The notes: a model not told the origin generated them from the sequence alone. DNA of 32,000 nt from Burkholderiaceae bacterium (GCA_044355655.1 JBIKXS010000020.1:25345-57344), one strand, 5' to 3'; counted from the stretch's first letter, positions 3,904-32,000 are shown. Numbers and translations: made by a program.

Positions 3904-3934
3904 AAAATTAAAACAGAGAAGCACTAGAATACTT

Positions 3935-4564
3935 TCAAGTCGTCGATTCAGTGGGTATCGCCGGCTCGCCAAATTGAATACCGATTTGAGCCATTGCTTT
4001 GCGTACCTCAGGACCCCAACGTTTCTCGATTTCTACACCGGTCGAGGCGGCGTGATAAACCGTGTCTTGTAGATCACCCTGCGCTGGTTGAATCATCACG
4101 AGCAATCGACCCATCGTGGTACCCGAATTGCGAAAATCGCGATAAATGCCAGCAGGTACTGAAACAAAATCGAGCGGGAAAAGTTTTGTGCTGTGCTGCC
4201 CTTGCTCGCCCCATAGAATTTCAAACTCACCCTCCAGGCAGAAGAAGTTTTCCACTGCGGCGCTGTGCTTGTGCAATCCCGCACGATCGCCAGGGGGGCA
4301 CTCGGCCAGCGTGATGGTCAGGCCCGGGGCGCCTCGCACCGGAGCAAGTTTGCTGCGACCTTCCCAACCCGCAGGGGCCATGATGGGCATGACTTTGTCA
4401 GGTGACATTAATCGCATTGCTTCAGGCGGTACACCGTTAGAACTTTGAAAACTGTCCTTGTACGGTCGCAGATCGGCGTAGCGCGCAACCCTCGTTGGAA
4501 CTGTGTGCTCCAGGGCTTCGGTCGACTCGGAATGCTGGTGCAGTGATGCGGTAGCATGGCTCAT
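3935..4564 (-). CDS. Cupin-domain protein
   Basis: Cupin motifs GLHKHSAAVENFFCLEGEFEI and VSVPAGIYRDFRN. ATG 4564 is preceded by GAAGGAG 8 nt upstream and is preferred over the longest-ORF start at 4582. Confidence 0.65.
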   Translation of the reverse strand: MSHATASLHQHSESTEALEHTVPTRVARYADLRPYKDSFQSSNGVPPEAMRLMSPDKVMPIMAPAGWEGRSKLAPVRGAPGLTITLAECPPGDRAGLHKHSAAVENFFCLEGEFEILWGEQGQHSTKLFPLDFVSVPAGIYRDFRNSGTTMGRLLVMIQPAQGDLQDTVYHAASTGVEIEKRWGPEVRKAMAQIGIQFGEPAIPTESTT

Positions 4565-4584
4565 GAAGGAGCTCCTTCTCAAAG

Positions 4585-9618: not shown

Positions 9619-11244
9619 TTAAGTGATTGCAGCGTTTGACTGTCTTGCTGTAACGCTGGGATAAGGGCCATCACAAAGCTGGTATCGGGCAAGTAGCGCT
9701 GCAGTGACCGCTTTCCGACTGATTTTGCCTTGAGCGTTGCGGGGAAATTCTTCAAGCTCTAAAAACAATCTCGGCCGTTTATGCGCTGAGAGGACCAAAA
9801 CCCGCGACTGACAGTTCTCGATCCAATGCTGACTGAGCGTGTTTCCGCTGGCTCCAGGCGATCGCGCATCTTTCCATGCTTGATCGGGATTTTGGGGCCG
9901 TTCAGCGACAGCAACGATGATCTCACCCCAATATGTGGAGGGTAGCGAGGTGACAAGCATTTGTTGAACGCCGGGCAGGTCTGCCAGTACGCCTTCAATC
10001 TCATCCGGGTTGACCCGGTAGCCACCAGTCTTGATCACATCGGCCATGCGCCCCGACAAGAACAGTCTGCCGAACTCGTCGATAAAGCCAAGATCGCCCG
10101 TGGCATGCCAATCATCAGGCCCATGCAACATAAATCCATCGGCGGTAATCATGCCCACTGACATATGACTTGCCCGAATCCATATCTGATTAGGCGAATC
10201 GTCGCCTGAGCCATCTGATGCGACCTGATTAGCTTGTTGCGGCAAGCCGATCGCGATTTCAACACCTGGTGCGGCCCAACCGACGCAAGCCGCCCCTAGC
10301 TTGAGACCTTCAGCAAGTCCGGCTGCGGTGTCTGATGGAGGCAGGACGGTAATCGGGTTGACACATTCCGTCTTGCCATAGGTAATTCTGATGACATCAC
10401 CGAAAATCCTGCGCGCCTGCAAATAAAGACCTTCGTTGAGTGCCTGGGTACCAGTGAAAATACACTCGATGGTTTCAATGCGTTCCGACTCGAATGCGGC
10501 AACGAGTTTTGCCAGTACGGTGGGAGGCGCAAAAATCGCCTTGACGCGTCCTCTGGCAAGCACCGCGCGCAATGCCTTAAGCTCGACACCCTGTAGCAGA
10601 ACGACCTCGGCACCGTAGTCCATCCAGGCGGCGGCAAGCAGCCCAGCGCCATGCACGAAGGGCGTCATCAAGACAATTTGATCACCAGGCCTGGGCTTGA
10701 AGGGAAACTCACTTTTTTGCAGTAACTCCCCTTGCCAGCGCGATCGATGGTCATAGACCACCGCCTTGGGTTTTCCCGTGGTTCCTGAGGTAAACATTAA
10801 TCGGGCCCATACCGAGCCATCGACAGCTTCGATACGTTCAGGCAGGTCTTGACCCAGCAAATGCTCAATTGAGATAACCTGCCAACCGAGAGATTGAAGC
10901 CGCTCTGACTGGGCTGGTGTTGAAACAATGCTGTCAACCCCAGCCAACTGTTTACACCATTGAAGTTCTTCGTCGGTTTGACCCCAGCCGAGTGCAACCT
11001 CACAAAGCCCAGCGACTTTCATCCCATGACTAAGCCAGACTGCAGGCAGTATATTTGGCATAAGACTGGCCACGCGCTCGCCGTGACCAAACCCTTTCGC
11101 CTGAAAGTAGCCAGCAACCTGCAGCACATGGCTGTAAAGCGCTTGGAAACTGAGGCTATCACTCTGGCCATTACTCAATGCAATCGCATCCGGAAATCGG
11201 TTGCGTAGCGATAACCAGTGAGCGCTCCAGGCGATACGTTTCAT
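9619..11244 (-). CDS. AMP-binding (class I adenylate-forming) acyl/aryl-CoA ligase-like enzyme
   Basis: Motifs MFTSGTTGKPKAV, ITYGKTE, ATGDLG, IKTGGYRV and GKISRK. SD AAGGGGA lies 7 nt upstream of ATG 11244. Confidence 0.85.
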   Translation of the reverse strand: MKRIAWSAHWLSLRNRFPDAIALSNGQSDSLSFQALYSHVLQVAGYFQAKGFGHGERVASLMPNILPAVWLSHGMKVAGLCEVALGWGQTDEELQWCKQLAGVDSIVSTPAQSERLQSLGWQVISIEHLLGQDLPERIEAVDGSVWARLMFTSGTTGKPKAVVYDHRSRWQGELLQKSEFPFKPRPGDQIVLMTPFVHGAGLLAAAWMDYGAEVVLLQGVELKALRAVLARGRVKAIFAPPTVLAKLVAAFESERIETIECIFTGTQALNEGLYLQARRIFGDVIRITYGKTECVNPITVLPPSDTAAGLAEGLKLGAACVGWAAPGVEIAIGLPQQANQVASDGSGDDSPNQIWIRASHMSVGMITADGFMLHGPDDWHATGDLGFIDEFGRLFLSGRMADVIKTGGYRVNPDEIEGVLADLPGVQQMLVTSLPSTYWGEIIVAVAERPQNPDQAWKDARSPGASGNTLSQHWIENCQSRVLVLSAHKRPRLFLELEEFPRNAQGKISRKAVTAALLARYQLCDGPYPSVTARQSNAAIT

Positions 11245-11256
11245 CCTGCAGTCCCC

Positions 11257-11817
11257 TTAGTTGACTTCCTTGAAACGCTGATCCCGATCTGTAAGGCTTG
11301 CAATGACCTCTTGCTCGTTACCAAGCGGCGGCCGAAGCTCCTCAATCACATCTGTCTCATGACCAAGAGGTGGTCGAAGCTCCTCAATCACATCAGCAAA
11401 AGCTTCAACATCCTCAAAACTTCGATAAACCGAGGCAAAACGGATGTAGGCAACCTTATCAATCTTGCGCAGTTCGCGCATCACCAATTCGCCAATCCGA
11501 TCGCTTGCAAGCTCACGCACGCCGTAACTCATCAGGCGGTTCTCGATTCGCAGCAATATGGCGTCTACCTGTTCAGCGCTTATTGGTCGTTTACGCAGTG
11601 CTAAAGCGATTGAGGCACGCAACTTACGGCGATCAAAATCGACTCGAGCGCCATTTTTCTTCACCACGACCGGCAGGTTTAACTCAACCCGCTCAAAGGT
11701 TGTGAAGCGCTTGTCGCACTGGCTACAACGCCGCCGCCGGCGAATGCTATCGCCCTCGTCGGAGTTGCGGGTGTCGATCACTTGAGTGTCGGCACCGTCA
11801 CAAAAAGGGCAGCGCAT
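11257..11817 (-). CDS. nrdR: Transcriptional repressor NrdR with an extended, internally duplicated C-terminal tail
   Basis: MRCPFC...VIDTR...RRRRRC..C..RFTTFE zinc ribbon followed by an ATP-cone. It sits next to glyA, as is usual in betaproteobacteria. Confidence 0.95.
11311..11394. repeat. 42-bp tandem duplication (2 units) inside the nrdR 3' region
   Basis: CCAAGCGGCGGCCGAAGCTCCTCAATCACATC (11321..11352) matches CCAAGAGGTGGTCGAAGCTCCTCAATCACATC (11363..11394). The units encode [14 protein letters not shown] / [14 protein letters not shown]. Confidence 0.9.
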
Positions 11818-13809: not shown

Positions 13810-15168
13810 CTATGCCAAGTGAATACGTGCAAACTTTCGCTTGCCTACCTGTAACACATAGCTGCCCGGACCGATATGCTGATTGCGGTCCGAGATACGC
13901 GCACCGTCAAGTTTTACGCCGCCTTGTTCAATATTCCGAATGGCCTCGCTCGACGATACACATAGGCCAGCAGCCTTAATCGCCTGCGCAAGCCCCAAGG
14001 ATTCAGCGCCGCCAAGACTGATGTGGGTATCAAGCAGATCATCCGGAACTTCGCCATCGCGAAAACGCGATTCAAATTCAGCAAGCGCCTGCTCAGCAGC
14101 TCTTGCATGATGAAAACGTGTCACCATTTCGAGCGCAAGCATCACCTTAGCGTCTCGAGGATTTCGTCCGTTCTCACACTCGGTTCGCAGGGCTTCGATG
14201 GCCTGCAAGGATTGACTGGAAAGCAGCAAAAAGTAGCGCCACATCAAGGTATCAGAAATCGACATTAATTTGCCAAACATCTGCGAGGGCGAATCGGTGA
14301 TGCCGACATAATTATTTTTCGATTTCGACATTTTTTCCACGCCGTCAAGCCCTTCGAGCAAGGGCATGGTCAAAATGCATTGAGGCTCCTGGCCATACTC
14401 GCGCTGCAATTCTCGACCGACAAGCAAATTGAATTTCTGATCGGTACCGCCCAATTCAAGATCTGATTGCAGCGCTACAGAGTCGTAGCCCTGCATGAGC
14501 GGATAGAGCAACTCATGCACCGAAATCGGCGTATTAGATTTATAGCGTTTTGTGAAGTCATCACGCTCAAGCATTCTTGCGAGGGTGTAGCGCGAAGCGA
14601 GTTGAATCATGCCGCGTGCGCCTAATGGATCTGACCATTCTGAGTTGTAACGAATCTCGGTTTTCTGCGGGTCGAGCACGAGTGAAGCTTGTTCAAAGTA
14701 GGTTTTGGCATTGGCTTCGATCTGTTCTCGGGTGAGCGGTGGGCGGGTAGCATTTCGGCCAGAAGGGTCACCAATCATGGCAGTGAAGTCGCCAATCAAA
14801 AAAATCACCGTATGACCTAGATCTTGGAGCTGGCGCATTTTGTTCAGCACGACCGTATGCCCAAGGTGTAGGTCGGGCGCTGTAGGATCAAGACCAAGTT
14901 TGATTCGAAGCGCCTCTCCCCTGGCTTCGCTGCGCGCCAACTTGCGCAAGAAATCAGATTCAACCAATAACTCATCGGCACCACGCTTGGCCACCGCCAT
15001 CGCTGCCTCAACACTGGCCGTGACAGGGTAACTCGGCAGTTGAGCATCTGCAGGCAACGATCTTTCAGCCTCGCAAAGTGCTTGTGGCAGCAATGCTGTT
15101 GCCGCTAGCGCTGCCTGTGGGTTGGGGCTTTTCGGATCGGTGGAATCAGCTCGAGAACTCATGGGCAA
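13810..15168 (-). CDS. tyrS: Tyrosine--tRNA ligase (type 2)
   Basis: HLGH (DLHLGHTVV) and KMSKS motifs plus a C-terminal S4-like domain. The longest ORF gives about 35-40 more N-terminal residues than I expect for Burkholderiales TyrS. An internal TTG start is possible (for example at the Leu of SLPADAQ). Confidence 0.92.
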
Positions 15169-20620: not shown

Positions 20621-21049
20621 GTGATGCATTGCAAAGTTCGATGGGGTGGTCCAACGGGCATGAGTTTTCATGCTGAAACCGGAAGTGGTCATCTCGTGAG
20701 CATGGACGGGGCGCCAGAAGGTGGTGGGCGAAATCTGGCACCACGTCCGATGGAGATGGTGCTTTTGGGCACTGGGGCATGCACTGCCTACGATGTTGTC
20801 CTGATTCTGCGTAAAAGTAACCAAGATGTTCGCGATTGCGAAGTGAGCCTTGAAGCAGCGCGCGCCGTAACCGACCCCAAAGTATTCACCGCAATCAAGA
20901 TGCATTTTGTGGTTGTGGGCAAGGGCTTAAAGGCAAATTTGGTGGAGCGCGCTATCAAGCTCTCGCATGACAAGTATTGTTCTGCAACCGCAATGCTCGG
21001 CAAGTCAGCCAGCATTGCAATCGACTGGGAAATTAAAGAGGTCGATTAA
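20621..21049 (+). CDS. OsmC-family (OsmC/Ohr/YhfA-like) protein
   Basis: About 140 aa with RPMEMVLLGTGACTAYDVV and HDKYCSATAML (the paired Cys context of the OsmC family). The start is GTG 20621 or ATG 20624. Confidence 0.85.
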   Translation: MMHCKVRWGGPTGMSFHAETGSGHLVSMDGAPEGGGRNLAPRPMEMVLLGTGACTAYDVVLILRKSNQDVRDCEVSLEAARAVTDPKVFTAIKMHFVVVGKGLKANLVERAIKLSHDKYCSATAMLGKSASIAIDWEIKEVD

Positions 21050-21160
21050 GACATCATAAGGAGGTTGATTAAGACATCAACCTGGTAGCGCCGTCATCCA
21101 TCGAAAGCGCTGTGATGAAAGCCTCGTGAGTTAAAACTAAGGGATGTTGCCTCGACCTTA

Positions 21161-21916
21161 TTAAAGGTGGTAAGCCGTCTTTGTCATTAGCTTTGCACTT
21201 GCTTGCATTGCCCAATGCACCGCTTTGGGGAGCTCGTTTGCGCCTCGGCGCGCAGCCGATTCGGCATGAGCAGCTTCATCTTCTTTCATCGCCAAGAGGA
21301 TTTGCCGGGAAATCACATCGCCTTCGGGCAGCTTGTCCAGATGTGAATCAAGATGCGCTTCCACCTGACGCTCGGTCTCGCGCATGAAGCCCAAACTCGT
21401 TCGATCGCCAAAGCGTCCAGACAAGTAACCGATGGCAAAAGCGCCCCCGTACCAAAGTGGATTGAGCATCGAAGTGCGTCCTCCAAGCTGATCGATCCGT
21501 GCCTTGGTCCAAGCGAGATGGTCAGCCTCTTCGCGTGAAGCCTGCATGAAGAAATTGCGAAGCTCGGGGTCAGCCGTTGACAAGGCATGGCCTTCATAGA
21601 GCGCTTGAGCGCAGATTTCGCCAACATGATTCACCCGCATTAATTTAGCGGCTAAGGCCATTTCTTGCTCATCAATGCTTGGCTTTTCGATCTGTTTCGC
21701 AGGCGACGGGGCAGTGGGCACTGTCTCCGGCAGGGCCATCGAGTTTGTCGAGCGCGAATCAAGCTTCAACGCAGAAGTTGGATCGCACGCCGGAGGTTGT
21801 TTCGAGTTGGTCAGAATTTCAGTCGGTGTACGAAGCGCGGGCCCGTTTCCCCGGAGGGTCGCCAAAGCACGGCCTAACACCCCCAGATATTGATCGCCTT
21901 TAGATACGCGTCTCAT
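21161..21916 (-). CDS. coq7: 2-polyprenyl-3-methyl-6-methoxy-1,4-benzoquinone (demethoxyubiquinone) hydroxylase Coq7
   Basis: Di-iron carboxylate motifs (LMRVNHVGEICAQALY, EEADHLAW, ETERQVEAHL, DEAAHA). It is about 40 aa longer than usual because of a Pro/Ser/Thr-rich linker after the N-terminal helix. Confidence 0.88.
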   Translation of the reverse strand: MRRVSKGDQYLGVLGRALATLRGNGPALRTPTEILTNSKQPPACDPTSALKLDSRSTNSMALPETVPTAPSPAKQIEKPSIDEQEMALAAKLMRVNHVGEICAQALYEGHALSTADPELRNFFMQASREEADHLAWTKARIDQLGGRTSMLNPLWYGGAFAIGYLSGRFGDRTSLGFMRETERQVEAHLDSHLDKLPEGDVISRQILLAMKEDEAAHAESAARRGANELPKAVHWAMQASAKLMTKTAYHL

Positions 21917-22224
21917 TCTTTTTCTATGTCTTTCAAAAATCCAGTCACGTTCACAGTTTCACTCCAATAATCAGCGTTCGTTGTTCTCGGGCTAGGTGTA
22001 AGGTCCTGCTGGCATCGATTTGTGTTGTCATTGAGCAACGAACCGCATCGGATTCACAACAAACTACGTCGATGCCCTGCCGAATTGTAGCGAAAGGGTT
22101 GGATGCGTCGCTACTTTGAGTCACAATCAATCCAACTTCAAACCAGTCGAAGCTCATCGGTTGATGCTCGATTGGGGAGTTGTTCGGCGATGTGCCGATA
22201 ATTCAGAAACTAGGAGAGTAACTC

Positions 22225-23451
22225 ATGAAGAAATCGCTTCTCGCGATTGCAATCGCAGCTGCTTTACCGGCCGTCGCATCGGCCCAAGTGACTATTTCTG
22301 GCTACGCTAAAGGTAGCTTTGATAGTTTTTCGATTGGCGACAAAAACGCCGCTAGGCTTGGCAAAACCTCAGAGAATCGTGTAACCGACCATTCGTCACG
22401 CATGATTTTCAGCGCGAACGAGCAAATCGATAATGATCTTTCTGGTGTTTTCCAATTGGACTTGCGCTTTAATGTGGACCAAGTTGGACGCGCTGGTAAT
22501 GAAGGTGCGGCGGCAGAACCAGGAAAACATGTTGCAACACCTAGCGCGGTTGGAAACGTATTGAGCACTGGTAACAACCATGTCGGTATCGTCAGTAAGT
22601 CGATGGGTGCCCTGAGATTTGGGCGTTCAGACATTTACTACGGTAATACTGGCTCTGTATTGCCAAGTTCTACACACATCAACGCCTCTGCGCCTACTGT
22701 GATTCATAACCCAGGCGCAGCAATGGCCAACTGGTCGCGCACGCCAAACCTGATTTGGTACACCTCACCGACGGTCCAAGGATGGTCTGCGACTGCTGGC
22801 TATTCAACCAATCCACTGCGCGTGTCAGGTACTAACGAAACCGAAAACGACCTTAGCACGACTGCAGCGACTCGCAAGGGTAGCGGTACATTCTTCCAGG
22901 TCAATGGTACGGTTGGTCCGGTAGCATTAGCTTACGCTACCGTCAATCTCAAGTCTGACTACTTTGGCGGCACATGTACCCTTGCTAGCGGTAGCTGTAT
23001 TTATGAATGGACGAACAACCCCAACCCGAATCAAAAGGGTAATGTTGTTACAGCTATTTACCGTAGTGGTCCAATCGCTTTGGGAGCAGCTTACTCGGCT
23101 AACGAGACGTCAAGCAACACGAATATTAAGACTGAGCGTACGGCCTTCAACTTGAGTGCGGCCTACACGATGGGTAAGAATACCTTTGCACTTGAGCGTC
23201 AAACAGGCGGCGACCTTTCAAGGAACGGTGCTAAACAGGCCGAGACTGGATTAACCGGTACGGTACTCGCTTGGGACTACGCATTCTCCAAGCGCACGAA
23301 CGTGGGTGTTACACACTTTATCCTTGAGAACGATAAGAATTCTAACGTTGGCCCCTTCTATTCAACCAGCAACACCTTTGGTGGACAGTTTGGTGCACTG
23401 GCTGGTGAGAAGTACACGGTTACAGCGTTCGTAATGCGTCACACATGGTAA
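22225..23451 (+). CDS. Gram-negative general porin (Burkholderiales OmpC-like), intact copy with native promoter, SD and start
   Basis: Signal peptide MKKSLLAIAIAAALPAVASA|QVTISGY, alternating beta-strand pattern, aromatic C-terminus (FVMRHTW). SD AGGAGAG lies 7 nt upstream. Confidence 0.9.
   Translation: MKKSLLAIAIAAALPAVASAQVTISGYAKGSFDSFSIGDKNAARLGKTSENRVTDHSSRMIFSANEQIDNDLSGVFQLDLRFNVDQVGRAGNEGAAAEPGKHVATPSAVGNVLSTGNNHVGIVSKSMGALRFGRSDIYYGNTGSVLPSSTHINASAPTVIHNPGAAMANWSRTPNLIWYTSPTVQGWSATAGYSTNPLRVSGTNETENDLSTTAATRKGSGTFFQVNGTVGPVALAYATVNLKSDYFGGTCTLASGSCIYEWTNNPNPNQKGNVVTAIYRSGPIALGAAYSANETSSNTNIKTERTAFNLSAAYTMGKNTFALERQTGGDLSRNGAKQAETGLTGTVLAWDYAFSKRTNVGVTHFILENDKNSNVGPFYSTSNTFGGQFGALAGEKYTVTAFVMRHTW
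22232..22869 (+). repeat. Left copy of a long direct repeat (porin nt 8 onward); the extent is limited by the window end
   Basis: Identical to 31363..32000 (offset 9131) except 22815 A versus 31946 C, a synonymous Pro codon change. Confidence 0.97.
22243..22256. repeat. Perfect 14-bp palindrome GCGATTGCAATCGC, 11 bp inside the repeat boundary (second copy at 31374..31387)
   Basis: Read directly. It lies in the signal-peptide coding region (LAIAIA). Confidence 0.9.
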
Positions 23452-23480
23452 TTTAGAACGTCGTTGGTTCTATAAGCCGG

Positions 23481-23509
23481 GGCCCGTCGAAAGACGGGCC
23501 TTTTCGTTT
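23481..23509 (+). terminator. Rho-independent terminator of the porin gene
   Basis: GGCCCGTC-GAAA-GACGGGCC followed by TTTTCGTTT. Confidence 0.8.
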
Positions 23510-23574
23510 GTATGTCCAGGCAACGGACTCAACAATCCAAGCAAATAGCGCAGTTGGGTATAGCTTGACCATCT

Positions 23575-24867
23575 GTGTCAAGCGAAGCAAGTAACGATGC
23601 TGTATTCAGGGCCAAGCGCTCAAGGTCATGCCCACTGCGGTTGACGTTTTGTCGGATCGAGGGTCAAGCGGCCTCGCTGACCTTATACCGTATCGAAGCG
23701 AGCAGCTTTTGGCAGTGCCGTTTCTTTCACGCTGGAAAGATGCTCACGAAAAGTACGCGGACTGCGCAACTTGATGAGGCCAAGCGATTCGCGCTTGCTT
23801 TTCACCACAGCAAAGTACACCAAACAACGAGCGAACTCATGGCCGATGCAATGCCAGGCCCAGTGCGCTTTGGTGAGTTAGCGAAACAGCTCATGCGTCA
23901 CGAGGCAACCCGCAAAGATCGGGGCGAGTTTGCCGAGCTCTCTTATCGTGCTGATCAGATTCGCCTTGCAACAGAAATTATTCCCTTCTTTGGGCCAATG
24001 CCAGTGAAGGCAATTACCGCGCAGCATGTGGAGTCTTTTTACTTCAAACTCACTTCGCGCGCCCTATCGAGCACGACCTTATCGCTCTACTTGATGACGC
24101 TTAGAAAAGTGCTCAAGTACGCACGCACCTTGAGCATCATTGAGACCTTGCCAACGATGCCTTCGGTCAAGATCAAGAAGCGTTCGAGGGGAAGTTTTAC
24201 ACCGACTGAGTACGTGACGCTCATACGAAGCGCGCGACAAGTGGTTGGAAGCACGGTGCTTGACGCAACCGAGGTGATTCCAAAACGATTCTGGATCATC
24301 CCGAAATATAGACGCTACCCACAAGATTTAGCCTACGTCATCGCCTTTATGGTGAACAGTTTCATCAGACCAAGCGATCTGAAGACGCTTCGTCATCGAC
24401 ACGTTGAAGTGGTGCGAGGCCCGCACAATTACCTTCGACTGACTTTGCCAGAGACCAAAGCGCATGATGCACCGATTGTCACGCTCAGACCCGCTGTGCG
24501 CTTGTATGAACGTTTGCTCAAGCAACAACAGTGTCAAGGTTTTGGAAGACCCGATGACTTCTTGTTTTTGCCTCTCGAACAGAATCGAAACTATGGCTTG
24601 GCTGTGTTGGGCTGGATGTTCCGACACTTACTTGACAAGTTAGGGTTACGAAATGGCCCACACGGGCACCCTAGAACGCTCTACTCACTGCGACACACAG
24701 CGATCACGCTTCGTTTGCTCTATGGCACAGGTATCGACATGTTGACACTCGCAAGAAATGCGAGAACTAGCGTCGAGATGATCGAGCGACACTACGCTAG
24801 TGCGCTTACTGCTGAGCGAAACATCGGTATGTTGCAGAGCAAACGCGGCCCAAGGCAACGAAACTAA
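23575..24867 (+). CDS. Tyrosine-type site-specific integrase (full length, with N-terminal DNA-binding part)
   Basis: C-terminal catalytic region with FIRPSDL (Arg I), LYSLRHTAITLRLL (His/Arg II) and MIERHYAS (nucleophile Tyr). The start is uncertain (GTG 23575 is the longest ORF). Confidence 0.88.
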   Translation: MSSEASNDAVFRAKRSRSCPLRLTFCRIEGQAASLTLYRIEASSFWQCRFFHAGKMLTKSTRTAQLDEAKRFALAFHHSKVHQTTSELMADAMPGPVRFGELAKQLMRHEATRKDRGEFAELSYRADQIRLATEIIPFFGPMPVKAITAQHVESFYFKLTSRALSSTTLSLYLMTLRKVLKYARTLSIIETLPTMPSVKIKKRSRGSFTPTEYVTLIRSARQVVGSTVLDATEVIPKRFWIIPKYRRYPQDLAYVIAFMVNSFIRPSDLKTLRHRHVEVVRGPHNYLRLTLPETKAHDAPIVTLRPAVRLYERLLKQQQCQGFGRPDDFLFLPLEQNRNYGLAVLGWMFRHLLDKLGLRNGPHGHPRTLYSLRHTAITLRLLYGTGIDMLTLARNARTSVEMIERHYASALTAERNIGMLQSKRGPRQRN

Positions 24868-24871
24868 ACGC

Positions 24872-24897
24872 AAGCGTCCCAAAACGAGACGCTCAGC
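24872..24897. repeat. IR-L: left copy of a perfect 26-bp inverted repeat (AAGCGTCCCAAAACGAGACGCTCAGC)
   Basis: It is the exact reverse complement of 28954..28979. It contains its own 6-bp stem, AGCGTC-N9-GACGCT. Confidence 0.95.
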
Positions 24898-24903
24898 ACG
24901 TTA

Positions 24904-25365
24904 TCAATGTGGTTTTGCCCTAAACCGTGCCTTCAATTGATCAGAAGCAGCTTGAATCAACAGATCTAACTCCCCAGCATCAAGCGCAATGAGTATGCGC
25001 TCAAGCATCGGAATCAACGCCGCGACGGAGTCAAGCTCAAGCGCTGTCTTACCTTTTTGAAACTCTAGGGCCTTAGACCCATACTTGATTTCAAGGCCGA
25101 TTTTTCCATGCTCAGAAGTAAACCACCAGCAGCGAAGCCTTATGCGGTGTTCCGTCTCGCGTTGTTCCCCAGAGATGCGATCGGTCACGAGGCGACGACG
25201 TATGGTATGAAGTGGGTGTCCGTCTAGCTGCGCTTGAGCGAGCTCAATTTGCTGTTTGAGTCTTTTCCTAAGTTTCGCGCGACGAAACTCGATGGGTGTT
25301 GGGGGCGTAGCTCGCTTTGGCGCGAACCACTTGAGGCCTTGCAAGATGGTCATTGATTGATTCAT
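24904..25365 (-). CDS. Hypothetical protein (153 aa), island cargo
   Basis: A long ORF with plausible composition and no catalytic motif recognised. Its pattern (basic N-terminus, RLRCWWF...GKIGLEIKYGSKALEFQKGK...AGELD) recalls conserved island-associated hypothetical proteins, but I cannot name a family with certainty. Confidence 0.55.
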   Translation of the reverse strand: MNQSMTILQGLKWFAPKRATPPTPIEFRRAKLRKRLKQQIELAQAQLDGHPLHTIRRRLVTDRISGEQRETEHRIRLRCWWFTSEHGKIGLEIKYGSKALEFQKGKTALELDSVAALIPMLERILIALDAGELDLLIQAASDQLKARFRAKPH

Positions 25366-25479
25366 TATAAAGAACGATAAGCGATTATCTCTTTACAATG
25401 ATTTGGTTTTTGCTGGAACGGCTCGCAAAACAATTGGTTATTTTGTACTTTTATTTGGTATGGCATAAATAAATGCATC

Positions 25480-26037
25480 ATGACAAACGTTCATCAATCT
25501 ACTGGCATTGTGCAAACACACGACAGTCTGCTACAGCAAGCGTTGAATCAGTGGCTCGCGATGCACCATGGGGCGTTTACGCATGCAGCGACATTTACAT
25601 TTAACGAGCGACGAGTATGGAGGTTCATCGGAGCCAGCACTCAGTTTATAACTCCGCATGATGAGGGCATGATCGCGCTCTTGCGAAAGACGATGCGTTT
25701 GTTTCAGCGTCGGCTTGAGCGTTCGCTTTATGGGAACGCAGCTAAGCGCTATGGACAACGTTTGCTTTTTATTCCAATGCTGGAGGGACTTCGTTGTGGC
25801 GAGTTTCCACACTATCACGCAGCGTTGGGGGTTGACGAGGCTCGAACTGCATCGCTCGCAACGAAGATCAAGCGTGCGTGGACTTCGTTACCATTTGCAG
25901 GACATCACATTGAGCTAGTACCTTACAGGGATCAAGGGTGGCTCAGCTACAGCACGAAAGCTGCGTATCGAGTCAATCAGCACTCGATTGATTGGGAAAG
26001 CGTGAGCGTTCCACTTCGATCCCCAATCCCTTGCTGA
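25480..26037 (+). CDS. Small HUH-motif Rep-like protein (inovirus Gp2 / YfjJ-YagK-like rolling-circle initiator or relaxase-like nuclease)
   Basis: Three motifs in the canonical order: AATFTF (aa 36-41, motif I like FLTLTY), FPHYHAALGV (H111-Y-H113, the HUH motif) and LSYSTKAAY (aa 155-163, YxxK-type Tyr motif). Confidence 0.6.
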   Translation: MTNVHQSTGIVQTHDSLLQQALNQWLAMHHGAFTHAATFTFNERRVWRFIGASTQFITPHDEGMIALLRKTMRLFQRRLERSLYGNAAKRYGQRLLFIPMLEGLRCGEFPHYHAALGVDEARTASLATKIKRAWTSLPFAGHHIELVPYRDQGWLSYSTKAAYRVNQHSIDWESVSVPLRSPIPC

Positions 26038-26415
26038 GCAAAGCTCCTTGGGGTTGCGCATGAAAAGCGTGATCGCTTTATTTGTCTCACCACGTCCATA
26101 GCAATCTATGCGTTCAGATGAACGAACATCAAGCGCAACCTTAGCGACAGATCGTTGATTGTCGATCTGCTTTCAGCGAGATAGGTTATTCGATATGCAT
26201 CGTATACCGTTATCGGATGCAACAGCATCAGTTTTTTAAAAAAACTCGCAGGCATTGAGCCAGATATAAACCAATACAAAGAACACAAAGCATTGGTCTT
26301 CGCTTAAGTTATTGATCTATATAGTATTGTATTTTATACCGATCACGGTTGCCCTTTCAGACCAAAGGGTTCATCATAAATACATACAAACTCGTTGGTA
26401 TTGAAAGGAGAACAG

Positions 26416-27021
26416 ATGGCACAGGCTCGAGTTTTAACAGACAGAGATGTGGGCCGCGTGTTGCGTTATATCGCAAATCACAAACACGCATCTCGCAACA
26501 GAGCGATGTTTTTGCTCACGACGCAAACGGGTATGCGTATTGGCGAGGTCGCGGCGTTACGTCTATCGCAAGTGCTGACAAAAGACGGCAAGATCAGAGA
26601 TGAGATTCGGCTCGCACCAGATCAGACCAAAGGGGGTCGAGGTCGCTTGGTGATCTTGTCAGAAAAGGCGCAGCACGAGATTCATCACTACTTGTCGGTG
26701 AGATTTCGGCTCAAGGACTTGTTTCCCTTGACGATGACAGATACGAATCGAGCGCTCTTTTGTACGCAGAAAAATCCAGATCGAGGCTTCAGTGCGTCGA
26801 CGCTATCGCAGCACTTTCACTACATGTATCGGCGCGCGGGCATCGATGGGGCAAGTAGCCATAGTGGGCGTCGTAGCTTCATTACCCATCTAGCGGAGAA
26901 GGGCGTATCGGTGCGGGTGTTGATGGAGCTCGCTGGACATCGCAGCTTAGCTGTGACGCAGCGCTATATCGAGACAAATCCCTCAATGCTCAGACGAGCA
27001 GTCGAGTTGCTCAGAATCTAG
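26416..27021 (+). CDS. Small (201 aa) tyrosine recombinase, essentially catalytic domain only (FimB/FimE-like size)
   Basis: Motifs GMRIGEV (Arg I), TKGGRGR (Lys), HSGRRSF (His/Arg II), LAGHRSLAVTQRY (His and Tyr). AAGGAG lies 6 nt upstream of ATG 26416. Confidence 0.85.
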   Translation: MAQARVLTDRDVGRVLRYIANHKHASRNRAMFLLTTQTGMRIGEVAALRLSQVLTKDGKIRDEIRLAPDQTKGGRGRLVILSEKAQHEIHHYLSVRFRLKDLFPLTMTDTNRALFCTQKNPDRGFSASTLSQHFHYMYRRAGIDGASSHSGRRSFITHLAEKGVSVRVLMELAGHRSLAVTQRYIETNPSMLRRAVELLRI

Positions 27022-27037
27022 GGGCTAGATTCTGAGC
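27009..27037. terminator. Perfect 13-bp stem / 3-nt GGG loop hairpin between convergent genes (terminator or protein-binding site)
   Basis: GCTCAGAATCTAG-GGG-CTAGATTCTGAGC. It overlaps the recombinase stop codon and has no T-run. Confidence 0.4.
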
Positions 27038-27100
27038 ATGGGCTTCGTGGTGTGTGGGTTGCGGCGAAGCTTGGCTTTGCCAATTGAGGCTTAGACTAGG

Positions 27101-27880
27101 TCATGCAGCAACTTGCGCTGAGTATTCATTCTCTGCTTGAGGGCCTGCAAAATTAACGACTTCTTGCTTAAGCATCGCTGATTCTTCTTTGGCAATCGTT
27201 ATCTGCTTTGCTGCTGACTTCACCAAACCGTCATAAACGGTGTCACTTAAGTGTGGTACCACGCAGATGATGTCAAATCCACCTTGATCGTTAGGTTCTG
27301 CGATGAGCACAGAGCGACTCTCTGGCTTAATGCCACTAAGCGTGACTTGAGCAAGTGGGACGCTACGACGAGCTTCGATCTCTTGGGTCAAGGCGCAGAC
27401 TTCATGAGCAATGCGCTGACGCTTTGCTTGTGTCTCTTCGCTTAGCGTGATCAGCTTACATGCCCCATCAATACCACCAACGCTGTCAAGCCACTGAGGC
27501 AGATCGGCTGCTGCAATGGCGTGGGATTTAGCAGCTTCGATGACATAGCGATAGCGCATGACACGCTTACGGTCGCTCTTAAAGACATAGCGAATGAGGA
27601 TACCGAGCGTGGTTGAGGTCTTCTGGGTACGGATCCCATCGTTGAGGAGTTTTTCAATTAAAGCAGCGCGGAATGCCTTTCGTAAGCTGTCTTCTGTCAT
27701 CACAAAATGATCCTCGTAAGCAGCGTAGGTTTTGCTCAAGAGACTGTAGAGGGCTTGGGTCGCTGAGCGATAAACACTCGACTCCCAATCGGCGCGTTCG
27801 TCGCTCAGCACATTGAGTTTGCTCAACACGACGGTCGTTTGAGCTTCGAAGTTGGTTTCGGGGGTGATTGATGTGGTCAT
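27101..27880 (-). CDS. Hypothetical protein (259 aa), island cargo
   Basis: A long ORF with no recognisable motif. It is divergent from 28003..28884. Confidence 0.55.
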   Translation of the reverse strand: MTTSITPETNFEAQTTVVLSKLNVLSDERADWESSVYRSATQALYSLLSKTYAAYEDHFVMTEDSLRKAFRAALIEKLLNDGIRTQKTSTTLGILIRYVFKSDRKRVMRYRYVIEAAKSHAIAAADLPQWLDSVGGIDGACKLITLSEETQAKRQRIAHEVCALTQEIEARRSVPLAQVTLSGIKPESRSVLIAEPNDQGGFDIICVVPHLSDTVYDGLVKSAAKQITIAKEESAMLKQEVVNFAGPQAENEYSAQVAA

Positions 27881-27911
27881 TTGAATCTCCTTGGGTAGTT
27901 CAGCGTTCGTC

Positions 27912-27924
27912 AGACACCGTGTCT
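27912..27924. promoter_or_regulatory. 13-bp palindrome AGACAC-C-GTGTCT in the divergent promoter region
   Basis: Read directly. It is located between the starts at 27880 (-) and 28003 (+). Confidence 0.3.
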
Positions 27925-28002
27925 TTCGCTTTGCTGATGGGATCCATTTAACCAGTCGTTACCATATACTGTCCTCACTACGTTTTCAGTTGATAACACT
28001 AT

Positions 28003-28884
28003 ATGAATCGCGTTTTCCCCAACCTCTCGAAGCATTTCTATGAAGAGCAAAAGGCAGAGATCGCAGCTGCCAGGCGCAGCCCCTATTACATGTGGTGGAT
28101 GTGTCTCGCGTTAAGTCGAGAGTACTGGCGGTTATGTCAAGTCGAGGGAAAGACGGGTGATCCTCAGTTCGCAAGGGTCTATGAGCACTTTGGGGATGTC
28201 TTTCACGATGAATTTGATGATTGGTGGCTCGAGCACGGCAAGGCTGCCTTCGCTTACAAGATCAGACCCCCAGTGGTGCGCTACTTGACTCCGACAGACA
28301 GTCGCGAATTCTCAAATCATGGCCACTTAAAGCATGCAAAGCTTGTCGTCGTACCAGACCACTATTCAAAGTCAGAGCTTGTGAGACAGTTCAAAAGGCT
28401 TTTGGTCGACTATGCACCAAGCGCACTACCTGCTCGATTCGCAAGTCCGTTTGAAGTCGCAAGTCTACGCGGCATGAAGCGCAGCATGTTGAGAGATGTC
28501 TTAAGGGTCAGAGTAGCGAGCGATGCTTTACAAATCGTTAAGACCAAGCAATTGATCGCGCACCCAGAAAAGTACGGCGCTGCGTGGATTGGGCGCATCG
28601 CGAATATTTCACCTCGAAAAAGCGCTAATAAGTTGCGCACAAAGGACACTGATCGCAATGAGCGCTTAGCGCTAAGGGTCAAGGTGGCACGCTATCAGCT
28701 GAAGGCCTCTCGACTCATAGCTAACGCGGAGATTGGCGTTTTCCCCAACATAGCACCAACAACAGAAAATCCTAAGCGCTGGACAAAGGCGCAGCTTGCA
28801 CGGTTCGCAAAACTTGAGGCCCAAGAACCCTTCATCAGTCCAGTTGTTCAATACACGCAATATCTAAAATTGATCACGGGCTAG
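28003..28884 (+). CDS. Hypothetical protein (293 aa), island cargo
   Basis: A long ORF with a Trp/Tyr-rich N-terminal part (SPYYMWWMCLALSREYWRLC) and a basic C-terminal half. No motif was recognised and the SD is weak. Confidence 0.5.
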   Translation: MNRVFPNLSKHFYEEQKAEIAAARRSPYYMWWMCLALSREYWRLCQVEGKTGDPQFARVYEHFGDVFHDEFDDWWLEHGKAAFAYKIRPPVVRYLTPTDSREFSNHGHLKHAKLVVVPDHYSKSELVRQFKRLLVDYAPSALPARFASPFEVASLRGMKRSMLRDVLRVRVASDALQIVKTKQLIAHPEKYGAAWIGRIANISPRKSANKLRTKDTDRNERLALRVKVARYQLKASRLIANAEIGVFPNIAPTTENPKRWTKAQLARFAKLEAQEPFISPVVQYTQYLKLITG

Positions 28885-28953
28885 ACACTGCGATGGGTCG
28901 AGGGTACACGCTCGCATACTTAATCTTGGCGCTTTGAGCGATCGGTGTTGAAC

Positions 28954-28979
28954 GCTGAGCGTCTCGTTTTGGGACGCTT
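28954..28979. repeat. IR-R: right copy of the perfect 26-bp inverted repeat
   Basis: GCTGAGCGTCTCGTTTTGGGACGCTT is the reverse complement of 24872..24897. Confidence 0.95.
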
Positions 28980-29340
28980 AGGGGTGGTGATTGCACGGTC
29001 TCCGATTGTGCGGTGCTTTCAAAAAAAGGAAGCTCGACAAAAAATAAAAAAATTAAGGTTCTGATTGATCGAGCAAAAAAAGAGACTAACCTACGTCTAT
29101 AAAAAAAATGCAACGAGCTGGTACGAATTCAAATCGAGGTTGCTTGCTTCATGAAGAGAGGGCTTTTCAAGCCCCTCTGTGAACTCGCTTGCGCTATCGC
29201 GCTGCGCTCATTCACAGCTTTTCTTCACAATAAGTTAAGCACATGAGTCATCGGGATGGGGTTAACGAAGGAATTACTATAAGTGTGTGACTTTTTGAAG
29301 GTCAAAGCGCTTCGGTTTGATCCGTAGCGAGGGGTACCAG

Positions 29341-30804
29341 ATGCTAAGACTCGAAGTGGATCCAGCGGTCCTTAAGGCGTTAAAGACGGCATTTCCAAAA
29401 CCCTCGGGTGCGGCGCTGAAGGCATTGCGGAAATACGTGAGTGCGTTGAACGATCTACTCACCGAGGCAATTCGTCTGGGGAACGACCCTTATGGCGCTC
29501 GGTTTCACTTATTTAGTATCAGTCTGCATCAACTCGCGAACCGAGGGGGGCAGATTGGACCTAAGCGCATTCGTACGCATGCGTGGTTGAAGGAAAACGG
29601 GTTAGCGCTCGTTCAAGCAATCGAATTGGGCAGCAATCTGAGTGGTCAGAAGTCACGCGTTCGTCTAACAAGGCTTGTCACGCTGGTCGACGAGCTGAGC
29701 TTGGCTTCGGTGCAGATAAAGCACAGTGCGAATGTGAAGGGCTTTCTTGATCATCCGAGCGAGAGCGAAGTGGCATGGATTCGTCAGATTTATCCAGCGC
29801 TAGACCAACTCGATGAGGTCGCGGTCAATGCGCAGTATCACATCACTGACATCGATCTTGAGTCGTTGGGACGATTCATCATCTGGATCGCAGAAAAGGC
29901 ACGTCATATTCCTAAGTCAAGAAGGGATATGATTTTTCGGCAAGCGGTCTTGATCTACCGCGTTGCCAAGTTTAGTGATGGAATCTTTCTGCAAAAGATC
30001 AAACGTAGTCACTTTGGTCGAACGTACTATGAAGGCATCAGCGTTCAAAACGTGCACCGAACGCTACGTCAAGCGATGCTCGGTGACAGTTGGGAGTACG
30101 ACATCGTTTCATCGGTTGTTGCTTGGAAGCTAGGCTTTGGCGAGCGGTTTCGCCAAGTGATGCTCAAAAGCCAGTCGGTAGCTGAGATCTTTCCCACGAT
30201 GCTTATCTATCTGCAAGATAAAGATGATCTGATTAAGACGATACGTGCTGATACATATTTAAGGGATAGCGAGGTGGATGCGATCGGTCAGCGCAAGCAA
30301 GTGAAGTCAGCACTGACTGCGCTTTGCTTTGGCGCGAGGGTTGGTGCCAGTGGGTGGCATGACGACGCGGGCATGTGGAAAGTCCCCGCGATTGGAAGCA
30401 TCTTCAAAGATGTCAGTGAACGCAAGCGTTTTGTGATGAGTCGTAGCACCAAAGCATTCATCAATGAGCAAAGGAAGCTCGACCAATTCATCTTCGATTT
30501 GCACTTGGCTTCAAATCGATCACTCAAATGCGACCCTCGGCTTCAGACCGAAAGCGGACGAGTGAGTCGCGCTAAAGTGCTCGCATACCTTTATCAACAC
30601 GCTGAGACAGCGGCCATGGATATCGTTCGTCGCGAGTTAGCACAAGTTAACAACACGGTGCTTGCGAATATCCACGATGCGATCATCGTTCGAGAAAAAC
30701 TCTCGCTCGATGTTCGAAACGTGATCGAGGATTCGATGAGGCGAGAGACGGGTAATGTTTTCTGGAGAGTTAGCCAAAAGCAAATTAAGCGCTTTGAGAG
30801 CTAG
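29341..30804 (+). CDS. Divergent family-A (Pol I / T7-like) nucleic-acid polymerase domain protein with no exonuclease domains
   Basis: Numbering follows the 495-aa track ORF. FGRTYYEGISVQNV matches TGRLSSxxPNLQNIP; RTLRQAM matches RxIRxAF; motif A is D262. Motif B is R326-x3-K330-x7-F338-G339, the same spacing as RxxxKxxxxxxxYG. ETAAMDIV matches QGTAADII, and motif C is NIHD454AIIV. ATG 29341 has GAGGGG 6 nt upstream and is preferred over TTG 29317. Confidence 0.6.
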   Translation: MLRLEVDPAVLKALKTAFPKPSGAALKALRKYVSALNDLLTEAIRLGNDPYGARFHLFSISLHQLANRGGQIGPKRIRTHAWLKENGLALVQAIELGSNLSGQKSRVRLTRLVTLVDELSLASVQIKHSANVKGFLDHPSESEVAWIRQIYPALDQLDEVAVNAQYHITDIDLESLGRFIIWIAEKARHIPKSRRDMIFRQAVLIYRVAKFSDGIFLQKIKRSHFGRTYYEGISVQNVHRTLRQAMLGDSWEYDIVSSVVAWKLGFGERFRQVMLKSQSVAEIFPTMLIYLQDKDDLIKTIRADTYLRDSEVDAIGQRKQVKSALTALCFGARVGASGWHDDAGMWKVPAIGSIFKDVSERKRFVMSRSTKAFINEQRKLDQFIFDLHLASNRSLKCDPRLQTESGRVSRAKVLAYLYQHAETAAMDIVRRELAQVNNTVLANIHDAIIVREKLSLDVRNVIEDSMRRETGNVFWRVSQKQIKRFES

Positions 30805-30836
30805 AGCGCTTAGCTTATTGGACTAAATAAAGTGAT

Positions 30837-31187
30837 ATGCGCTTTACAGAATTCAAGCACCCACTTCAACCATTTATCGGTACCGTTCGAGTGGCCTCTG
30901 GCGCTGGTCAGATGCTTACGAAATTGGTTTTATGGAGTGATGGTCATCAACAAGCGCGAGCTTTGTTTGCACGCTTGTTTGGTGTAGGAAACATCATTGC
31001 TGTTGCTCAATTGATGAATGAGTCAGCGACGCAAATGCTCAAAAGCCCAGCGGAGCTCCAAGTCAAAGCAATGAGCGATCAAGCGAAACAGCTTAAGACC
31101 CGTGCTAAAACGATTAGGGCAAAGCGTGCACTCGATAAAGCAAAGCAATCACTTCAACAAGCTACAAGCAATAGCATAACGAGCTAA
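30837..31187 (+). CDS. Hypothetical protein (116 aa) with a Lys/Ala/Gln-rich, probably helical C-terminus
   Basis: ORF only; no motif recognised. Confidence 0.4.
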   Translation: MRFTEFKHPLQPFIGTVRVASGAGQMLTKLVLWSDGHQQARALFARLFGVGNIIAVAQLMNESATQMLKSPAELQVKAMSDQAKQLKTRAKTIRAKRALDKAKQSLQQATSNSITS

Positions 31188-31362
31188 TTATCATATCGTA
31201 TGGGATACGATACTTTATCGCGATAGGGCAACTCTTTTGAGAAGCATCGTTTGTAAACGAGTAGTCTAAAAGTATAAACGTTATACCATTAAACATGAGG
31301 ATTTTGGGCGCTTAAGCCATTGTTTTCGCGTAGGCAATTTCGTCGGATTTGCACTCTTGACG

Positions 31363-32000
31363 AATCGCTTCTCGCGATTGCAATCGCAGCTGCTTTACCG
31401 GCCGTCGCATCGGCCCAAGTGACTATTTCTGGCTACGCTAAAGGTAGCTTTGATAGTTTTTCGATTGGCGACAAAAACGCCGCTAGGCTTGGCAAAACCT
31501 CAGAGAATCGTGTAACCGACCATTCGTCACGCATGATTTTCAGCGCGAACGAGCAAATCGATAATGATCTTTCTGGTGTTTTCCAATTGGACTTGCGCTT
31601 TAATGTGGACCAAGTTGGACGCGCTGGTAATGAAGGTGCGGCGGCAGAACCAGGAAAACATGTTGCAACACCTAGCGCGGTTGGAAACGTATTGAGCACT
31701 GGTAACAACCATGTCGGTATCGTCAGTAAGTCGATGGGTGCCCTGAGATTTGGGCGTTCAGACATTTACTACGGTAATACTGGCTCTGTATTGCCAAGTT
31801 CTACACACATCAACGCCTCTGCGCCTACTGTGATTCATAACCCAGGCGCAGCAATGGCCAACTGGTCGCGCACGCCAAACCTGATTTGGTACACCTCACC
31901 GACGGTCCAAGGATGGTCTGCGACTGCTGGCTATTCAACCAATCCCCTGCGCGTGTCAGGTACTAACGAAACCGAAAACGACCTTAGCACGACTGCAGCG
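31363..32000 (+). repeat. Right copy of the long direct repeat (porin nt 8 onward), running off the window
   Basis: See 22232..22869. Confidence 0.97.
31363..32000 (+). pseudogene. Displaced second porin copy lacking the native promoter, SD and first 7 nt (ATGAAGA); 3' end outside the window
   Basis: Homology to the intact porin starts at codon 3, and the upstream DNA is island sequence. It may still be expressed from an alternative in-frame TTG at 31320, so the pseudogene status is provisional. Confidence 0.5.

Follow-up and report, generated by a model that had tools for sequence, protein, structure and literature searches.

The porin repeat and the island that it encloses

The window analysed here is a 32,000-nt stretch of a Burkholderiaceae bacterium (GCA_044355655.1, JBIKXS010000020.1:25345-57344), and our subject is an island near its 3´ end that is flanked by two copies of a porin gene and carries an integrase gene. 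Porin copy 1 (22225..23451, + strand) encodes a 408-aa protein of the Porin_4 type (Pfam PF13609, E 1.6e-23) and has its expression signals. These lie in a host-side arm, here termed the B arm (22158..22231, +), which as read from the sequence comprises a promoter region, the Shine-Dalgarno (SD) sequence AGGAGAG at 22212-22218 (+), 6 nt ahead of the ATG at 22225, and the first seven nucleotides of the open reading frame (ORF), ATGAAGA. The gene is followed by an intrinsic terminator with a 10-bp stem and a T run (23479..23502, +), and then by int430 (23575..24867, +), which encodes a 430-aa lambda-Int-like tyrosine recombinase, the candidate porin-site integrase. Porin copy 2 (31363..32000, +) is start-less and is cut by the window end. 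A first-pass annotation had read copy 1 as retaining the promoter region, SD and ATG, followed by terminator and integrase, and copy 2 as preceded by island DNA and stripped of start codon and SD, and the positions given above bear out both descriptions: the island DNA directly 5´ of 31363 ends in ...GCACTCTTGACG, with no ATG and no SD.

Positions 22232-22869 and 31363-32000 form a direct repeat at an offset of 9131 bp, with a single difference, A at 22815 versus C at 31946, exactly as first annotated. On the 5´ side of 22232 and 31363 the two sequences are unrelated, with mismatches at 96 of 132 positions, which agrees with the earlier statement that porin homology begins after ATGAAGA, that is, at nt 8 of the ORF. 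The first 25 nt of the repeat, AATCGCTTCTCGCGATTGCAATCGC, constitute a putative recombination core, present as copy 1 at 22232..22256 (+, the attL side) and again at 31363-31387 (the attR side). The core spans porin codons 3-11, within the signal peptide, and by inspection has the inverted-repeat structure AATCGC-TTCTC-GCGATT-GC-AATCGC; these two matches are the only ones in the window, where none would be expected by chance.

The island-side arm, or P arm (31188..31362, +), ends in ...GGATTTGCACTCTTGACG and partly resembles the host arm (ACTCtTGAcG versus ACTCaTGAaGa); repeated TAAAC(G) motifs within it were seen by eye only. At the place homologous to the porin start codon the P arm has a TTG that is out of frame in copy 2. 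There is an in-frame TTG at 31320, 14 codons 5´ of the copy 2 junction, with no SD at a usable distance and no promoter-like site upstream of it. Starting there (31320-31362; 10484-10526 in contig L004, described below), copy 2 would acquire the leader MFSRRQFRRICTLDE-SLLAIAIAAALPAVASA, which contains a twin-arginine-like SRRQF motif, and the P arm of the related locus L013 retains the same frame as the window leader (GTG ATT TGC GAA).

The sequence beyond the window was obtained from Ga0335038_0000035 (L001/L004), a 99.7-kb JGI contig found by exact-protein look-up that has 1 mismatch in 11164 bases against the window. In this contig the repeat unit, R, is 2199 bp long and 100% identical between its copies. 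It is equivalent to window 22232-24430 (copy 1, +): the porin from nt 8 onwards is followed by the terminator and by the first 285 codons (855 nt) of int430. Copy 2 is a full-length, intact ORF in L004. Since R extends past the porin stop codon, the two porins are identical, and there is no distinct allele in this window. The first-pass annotation had postulated a distinct porin cassette and had itself named identity to the end of the copies as the finding that speaks against one; the copies are identical to the stop codon and beyond, and the distinct cassette is therefore given up for this instance. The A/C difference at 22815 is not copy-specific either: L004 has C in both copies, and contig L005, judged from its mismatch count, appears to carry A in copy 2.

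What follows copy 2 is a decayed integrase gene. Past R, 260 nt corresponding to window 24431-24690 are deleted; the 128 bp that come next are 96% identical to window 24691-24818, and in them CGA has become TGA immediately ahead of the catalytic HY motif. The next 42 nt are 86% identical to the 5´ end of a 259-aa ORF of the island, after which there are some 290 nt of unrelated DNA, then genes for a GDSL lipase and a TPP enzyme, and ribD. The integrase pseudogene (12726-12901 in L004) thus has a premature stop, and its 3´ end is fused to a scrap of the 259-aa ORF. Because the DNA after copy 2 is a decayed unit with the gene order of the island, the downstream copy is not a naive resident gene, as had been supposed when the resident allele was described as displaced downstream; R itself includes two thirds of the integrase. 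The downstream copy most likely represents what is left of a previous island of the same kind. R is 100% identical up to the first deletion junction, and the isolated 128-bp piece past it has diverged by 4%, a pattern that fits frequent homologous recombination or gene conversion between the copies.

The int430 protein has a PHROG integrase match (E 4.6e-23) and an AlphaFold2 model (mean pLDDT 80.3) with a two-domain fold, core-binding and catalytic. Foldseek comparison with the PDB returned lambda Int (1z1b, E 1.8e-8), Tn1549 Int, Cre, IntI and XerH, each at probability 1.0, and the best alignment was to full-length lambda Int, N-terminal domain included; residues 36-90 of the model form a three-stranded sheet plus a helix and look arm-binding-like. 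R265, K295, R373 and Y407 are invariant among 31 int430 homologues. The protein has more than 3000 homologues, and homology extends over all 430 aa; there was no protein match in the plasmid collection, and IMG/VR gave only two weak partial hits. We infer that int430 may be the enzyme acting at the porin core.

The same arrangement in other Burkholderiales

At no fewer than nine independent loci in other Burkholderiales, int430 homologues (43-62% identical) adjoin a start-less porin copy. Homology to the expressed porin starts 8-19 nt into the ORF at each of these loci, which come from several genera and have unrelated porin sequences. Some of the porin pairs are direct repeats around islands, and others are inverted. 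Wherever the genomic context is visible, the homologues tend to adjoin the coq7-adjacent porin gene together with a second, start-less porin copy. Several P arms mimic the host arm, with an ATG or TTG one or two bases out of frame. That the same boundary recurs beside homologous integrases, in unrelated porins and several genera, favours site-specific recombination over an accidentally captured fragment.

In L094-L097 (integrase 46% identical) direct repeats surround an 8.85-kb island and homology runs from nt 9, the junctions being ATGAAAAA|AACCCTCG... for the expressed copy and ...TGATTTAC|AACCCTCG... for the second. L096, of this group, also contains three approximately 120-nt porin-terminator-like elements (1688-1807, 4175-4296 and 14095-14215). 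One of these follows an extra TPR/GT41 gene that is missing from L094, and a GT41 fragment lies in the island beside the terminator of the expressed porin; the terminator-like copies may be the trace of a past capture of flanking DNA. In L107/L108 (integrase 45%) the repeats are again direct, with homology from about nt 19, and the island has int430, a DUF6641 gene, a short recombinase and the ORFs p259 and p293 in common with the window island. In L107 there is also, at 3444-5901, another int430 homologue, the second of the locus, with 50% identity across residues 98-421; it is divergent with respect to a third porin body without a start (VFVYVDALATLSAISGAAFA|QSS...) and lies about 3 kb from the silent copy of the island, in the opposite orientation. 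L109 and L093 (integrases 61-62% identical) have a start-less porin copy directly 5´ of the integrase, with P-arm junctions ...GAGTGACG|AATCACTTCTCGCC (TGACG|AATCAC) and ...CGTAATG|AGTCACTTCTCGCC (TAATG|AGTCAC), respectively.

Inverted pairs are found at L098/L091 and L013/L014. In the Polaromonas-like L098/L091 (integrase 43%) the integrase stands alone between two inverted porin bodies, with homology from about nt 18; two long tandem-repeat arrays with periods of about 176 nt and about 268 nt lie a few kb either side of this porin-integrase-porin unit in L098 (1871-3221 and 15625-17216). L013, whose integrase is 54% identical to int430, and L014 are the two closest GTDB genomes. Both have kept the B arm, both have AATCGCTTCTCGCGATTGCAATCGC at nt 8 of the expressed porin, and in both it also begins a start-less inverted copy about 10.5 kb off, beyond nrdR. 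Their P arms share a GCTTAAG..ATTG motif with that of the window. In L013 there is also a porin-integrase-TPP arrangement, without cargo, at a position syntenic with the window. The expressed and start-less porins (9646 and 20170 in L013, 419 and 10905 in L014) face outwards from the 10.5-kb segment, which holds the porin promoter, coq7, osmC, rplM-rpsI, tyrS, glyA and nrdR. Recombination at these inverted cores would invert a dozen housekeeping genes and switch the porin.

All five silent porin copies that were checked end to end are intact ORFs, with dN/dS of 0.15-0.5. Amino-acid identity between silent and expressed copies is 86% in L094, 88% in L107, 88% in L098 and 77% in L091 (100% in L097), and the differences and indels are clustered in patches. 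As the flanking porins are distinct alleles in these relatives, allele replacement is plausible for the int430 family. The window lineage itself has a different allele in another sample: in L011 an island 98.9% identical to that of the window, with the same junction and P arm and with homology again opened by the 25-mer core, is followed by a porin allele that is 90% identical. The window island and P arm were found at 98.7-100% identity in many samples. By the L011 case, and by that of L094 and L097 described below, one and the same element is found in different host backgrounds.

Proposed integration at the porin start and competing explanations

We consider it probable that the 9131 bp at window 22232-31362 represent a single unit of an integrative island, one that probably replicates itself and resides in uncultured freshwater Burkholderiales, and that this island uses an int430-dependent mechanism at the porin core. 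In this model, int430 would recombine the P arm and core of the island with the core AATCGCTTCTCGCGATTGCAATCGC in the signal-peptide codons of the coq7-adjacent porin, and the crossover would fall within that core. A circular form of the island would carry, right after its own core, a porin body without promoter, SD or the first 7 nt. Integration would then join this body to the host promoter, SD and ATGAAGA, such that copy 1 is expressed, and would displace the formerly expressed body behind the island, without a proper start, as copy 2. If the island were excised at the cores, or by homologous recombination inside R, a 9131-bp circle would be set free and the downstream copy restored. The displaced copy would in this instance already have been the relic of an earlier related island, which would explain why the event left the porin sequence unaltered. 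As part of the same reading, we think that the 2.2-kb identity was probably kept by gene conversion, or reflects assembler collapse, up to the first deletion junction. The idea of porin replacement by integration, as first put forward, thus stands for its topology, given the recurrent nt 8-19 boundary near homologous integrases, and falls for a distinct incoming allele, given the 2199 identical base pairs.

A number of observations weigh against this reading. The porins of the window are identical, and no allele changed in this instance. In L094 and L097 the islands are 99.7% identical and the coq7 flanks 96.6%, and the porin alleles are unrelated in both positions. Within each of these two loci the alleles are similar (the L097 copies are 99.4% identical), and the silent-position porin of L096 is 98% identical to the expressed allele of L094. 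Because L094 and L097 have the island in common and the alleles not, the cassette is not stably carried and homologous exchange must be frequent; a constant island-borne porin allele is ruled out by the same pair. With regard to the enzyme, the canonical catalytic His positions of int430 seem, by inspection, to be Y370 and N395, and the Pfam PF00589 catalytic-domain model does not score on it. In addition, int430 lies 1.3 kb from the core in the window, and the integrase abuts the P arm in L094, L107, L109 and L093. The orientation of the island block relative to the porins is reversed between the window and L107, and this inversion accounts for the integrase being 1.3 kb from the core in the one and abutting the P arm in the other. 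One int430 homologue, in L105, has no porin nearby. Finally, the arrangement A-R-I-R-D, where A is the upstream chromosome, I the remainder of the island and D the downstream DNA, gives the same short-read assembly graph as A-R-D plus a free R-I circle, and neither an empty site, nor a circular junction, nor an alternative orientation was retrieved, so that recombination at the core stays a proposal.

The L105 homologue (10001-11413, 47% identical; no porin within 10 kb) adjoins a His_Phos-DUF4136-tilS-folB block that also flanks the inverted cassette of L098. L105 may once have had porins and lost them, or a rearrangement may have split the locus.

The strongest competitor is a Campbell-type event, in which a circular element with a captured porin-integrase segment recombined through RecA crossovers anywhere in the 2.2 kb, the nt-8 boundary being the scar of the capture. 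The 2199 bp of perfect identity far exceed any att core and would make an excellent RecA substrate, and the A/C polymorphism at 22815 is not bound to one copy. Homologous exchange does occur, as seen in the homogenisation within loci (99.4% between the L097 copies) and in the unrelated alleles of L094 and L097. However, capture of a fragment leaves unexplained both the mimicry of the host arm by P arms and the placement of the boundary within the first 8-19 nt at nine or more loci that vary in sequence, orientation and genus and always have a homologous integrase beside it. We therefore regard this explanation, taken by itself, as unlikely; the processes are not exclusive, and a site-specific origin is probably overlaid by homologous recombination.

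A chromosomal porin-switching system, in which a resident recombinase of the int430 family exchanges or inverts start-less cassettes at a single expression site, after the manner of shufflons, vsa or Omp1, and the 6.9 kb between two of these cassettes is a passenger element, has support from some of the relatives. In L098 and L091 the integrase alone, with no cargo, separates inverted bodies of 77-88% amino-acid identity, a start-less inverted cassette has been retained across the two species represented by L013 and L014, and L013 has porin and integrase without cargo at the window-syntenic position. The silent cassettes checked end to end have intact reading frames and dN/dS of 0.15-0.5, and the backbone genes of the island are found elsewhere with other integrases. 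In the window, however, the sites are direct and the bodies identical, and recombination between direct sites would excise rather than switch. The lambda-type architecture of int430, with its arm-binding-like N-domain, is typical of directional integration, many samples contain the island and P arm at 98.7-100% identity, in one case with a 90% allele alongside, which is expected of a mobile unit, and at no locus were both orientations seen. For the window we hold a switching system to be quite improbable.

The state of the assembly bears on how firmly the integrated form can be read. All contigs of the window island come from short-read metagenomes and break at the ends of R: L002 terminates exactly at window 24430, L005 and L008 begin 127 nt ahead of 24430, and L006 is a 9343-bp contig with ends that overlap by 212 bp. 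The junctions A|R, R|I, I|R and R|D were each recovered in independent samples, so that none is an artefact. The I|R junction is present in many assemblies and has one and the same sequence whether it is attR or attP. When JGI metagenome contigs were scanned for the exact R|D pattern, a single 1.3-kb contig was the result; a look-up of the integrase-remnant protein yielded one 1.1-kb contig, and a search with the porin and short flanks nothing new; no island-free contig spanning R was retrieved, and a genome scan with Coq7 found no genome of the same species, the best match being 58% identical. In the relatives the porin copies are divergent, and the repeat-flanked, integrated arrangement was therefore assembled there without ambiguity. 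That the island of the window is solely a free circular replicon (R+I), threaded by the assembler into a chromosome A-R-D with which it shares R, would fit the breaks of L002, L005 and L008 exactly at R ends, the cycle-like overlap in L006 and the encoded polymerase-like protein with which the island could replicate, but we judge it very improbable, given that a circle carrying a porin minus exactly 7 nt and 2.2 kb of chromosomal identity is best explained as an excision product, that up to four samples seem, unconfirmed, to be assembled as A-R-I-R-D, and that the relatives with divergent copies show the integrated state.

We also considered that the island might have entered the second gene of two tandem porin genes already in place, and reject this, as there is no displaced promoter/ATG fragment at the other end of the island and R runs straight into the integrase.

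Extending integration at the porin core to the whole family, one can tentatively picture a widespread porin-cassette system of Burkholderiales, in which islands replace the expressed porin as they integrate, by taking over promoter and start codon of the host, cargo-free inverted versions switch stored alleles and, if the porin is a phage or bacteriocin receptor, the receptor is converted; this broader view seems to us possible, though short of an even chance. Successive events in such a system would leave behind silent intact porin bodies and integrase relics, of the kind seen downstream of copy 2 and in L107. Receptor conversion or superinfection exclusion, as suggested in the first-pass annotation, and a change in the sensitivity of the host to phages or bacteriocins would be conjectural consequences.

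The island is best filed as a variant of the gene-targeting integrative elements, and a link to cassette switching is plausible. For the dusA-specific integrative elements (such as IMEVchUSA3) and for SXT in prfC, a tyrosine integrase acts in the first codons of a target gene that is still expressed (PMC8409611). The island likewise would integrate in the first codons and keep its target gene expressed. The dusA and prfC elements supply the resident body with a new promoter as well as a new N-terminus, whereas here the host keeps the promoter, the SD and the first 7 nt; and unlike those elements, the island would supply the whole gene body, with the resident body displaced and silenced. Their repeats are tens of bp long, while that of the island exceeds 1.2 kb.

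Other systems share one or another part of this design. The prophages e14 and phage 21, which integrate in icd, bring a replacement 3´ gene end of about 50 codons, with a long duplicated segment at one end. Like them, the island carries a substitute for the severed part of its target gene; unlike them, it carries nearly the whole gene, acts at the 5´ end, and lacks both phage structural genes and relatives in IMG/VR. Moses et al. reportedly described, in 1995, a site-specific inversion system for Omp1 of Dichelobacter nodosus (cited in PMC5903667). In Omp1, the R64 shufflon and vsa of Mycoplasma pulmonis, one expression site with promoter and first codons serves several silent bodies, the recombinase is co-encoded, and the recombination sites lie in the 5´ coding region. 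L098, L091, L013 and L014 have an inverted layout like that of these switches; in contrast, the copies in the window are direct and flank a mobile island, and inversion was observed at no locus. When porins encoded by phages, such as Lc of phage PA-2 or NmpC, bring about lysogenic conversion, this relies on genes that have their own promoter and act by regulation. There too a mobile element alters the porin that is displayed, but for the island, expression would come from physical takeover of the resident promoter and start codon.

Our literature search found no description of an integrase aimed at a porin gene's 5´ end, nor of start-less porin cassettes. The repeated pairing of the two in related bacteria suggests a previously undescribed route for swapping a surface protein, as far as can be judged from comparison of sequences. 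Known gene-integrating elements repair a short gene end, and known surface switches invert cassettes within one chromosome; the island appears to combine both. If this is correct, mobile elements would have a new means of remodelling the cell surface, one that would bear on the host range of phages, on sensitivity to bacteriocins and on the diversity of strains among the abundant freshwater Burkholderiales. It would also explain the integrase genes that stand beside porin genes in many Burkholderiales genomes, and would provide a compact integrase with a target set by a signal-peptide coding sequence.

Backbone genes and other features of the island

Downstream of int430 and convergent with it lies a gene for a DUF6641 protein (24904..25365, - strand; 153 aa, Pfam PF20346), a family that also adjoins the integrase in L094 and L107. 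It is followed by an ORF of 185 aa without family match (25480..26037, +) and by a short tyrosine recombinase (26395..27021, +). The latter has 208 aa and consists of the catalytic domain only, XerD/FimB-like (Pfam PF00589, E 2.6e-29); the NCBIfam XerD/XerA and invertase families score below their cut-offs, and homologues of 46% identity are present in L107, L110 and L113. Two backbone ORFs come next, p259 (27101..27880, -; 259 aa), with homologues in L107 (37%) and L113 (29%), and p293 (28003..28884, +; 293 aa), with homologues of about 25% identity in the same two loci. The last two ORFs before the P arm are p495 (29317..30804, +) and one of 116 aa (30837..31187, +), whose exact protein was present in no fewer than 21 public contigs, each time within this island. 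Searches of Pfam and NCBIfam with the 185-, 259-, 293-, 495- and 116-aa ORFs gave no match.

The predicted fold of p495 (495 aa; AlphaFold2 pLDDT 87.7) is like that of family-A DNA polymerases. Foldseek matches in the PDB were Pol I of Aquifex, M. smegmatis and Taq, the apicoplast polymerase and T7 polymerase, the top matches having E values of 2e-7 to 1e-5 at probability 1.0. A sequence search of the PDB gave nothing useful, and fold comparison alone identified the protein. We noticed by eye the motifs EYDIVSS, KSALTALCFGA and IHDAIIV. All 408 homologues of p495 are unnamed, and all are in Burkholderiales-type islands. On the strength of the model, p495 is probably the replicase of the island.

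The short recombinase, p495, DUF6641, p293 and p259 recur in the Burkholderiales islands L110-L115, together with another large integrase and with no porin repeat. Since the backbone is found with other integrases, it can be viewed as a mobile backbone that carries an exchangeable integration module, int430 plus cassette, and the island as belonging to a wider family of small elements that are probably replicative. In L113 (4553-21303) and L114 the set comprises the short recombinase, a DUF6876 gene, p495-like, DUF6641, p293-like and p259-like genes and a different terminal integrase of 460 aa. In L113 the gene for the 460-aa integrase directly follows one for a TonB-dependent receptor and shares its orientation, reminiscent of the way in which porin and integrase are arranged; the receptor gene was not seen to be repeated.

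As to the origin of the island, no phage structural, packaging or satellite genes were found in it, and its PHROG matches are integrases plus one unknown family. IMG/VR holds no members of the int430 family, and island DNA has no match in the phage or plasmid collections, so an origin from either was rejected. Models of defence systems had no match among the island proteins. An integron was rejected as well: IntI models match only the short recombinase, at 43 bits versus a cut-off of 265, no attC-like element was found, and the cassette is a whole porin body joined inside an ORF. The window contains no tRNA or tmRNA genes, and no known RNA families were found in 21000-32000.

A perfect 26-nt inverted repeat, AAGCGTCCCAAAACGAGACGCTCAGC, has its left arm at 24872..24897, overlapping a terminator-like hairpin between int430 and the DUF6641 gene, and its right arm at 28954..28979 (no strand is assigned to either; none would be expected by chance). 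The arms, each a hairpin, enclose 4.06 kb from the DUF6641 gene through p293, the short recombinase included. The bracketed stretch could be an invertible segment, or AAGCGTCCCAAAACGAGACGCTCAGC could be a terminator element specific to the island; three analogous inverted copies of 25-28 nt are present in the L094 island. Outside the island, at the end of an OsmC-like ORF (window 21034-21079), there is a tandem duplication of the 23-nt unit TAAAGAGGTCGATTAAGACATCA, the second copy of which is 91% identical.

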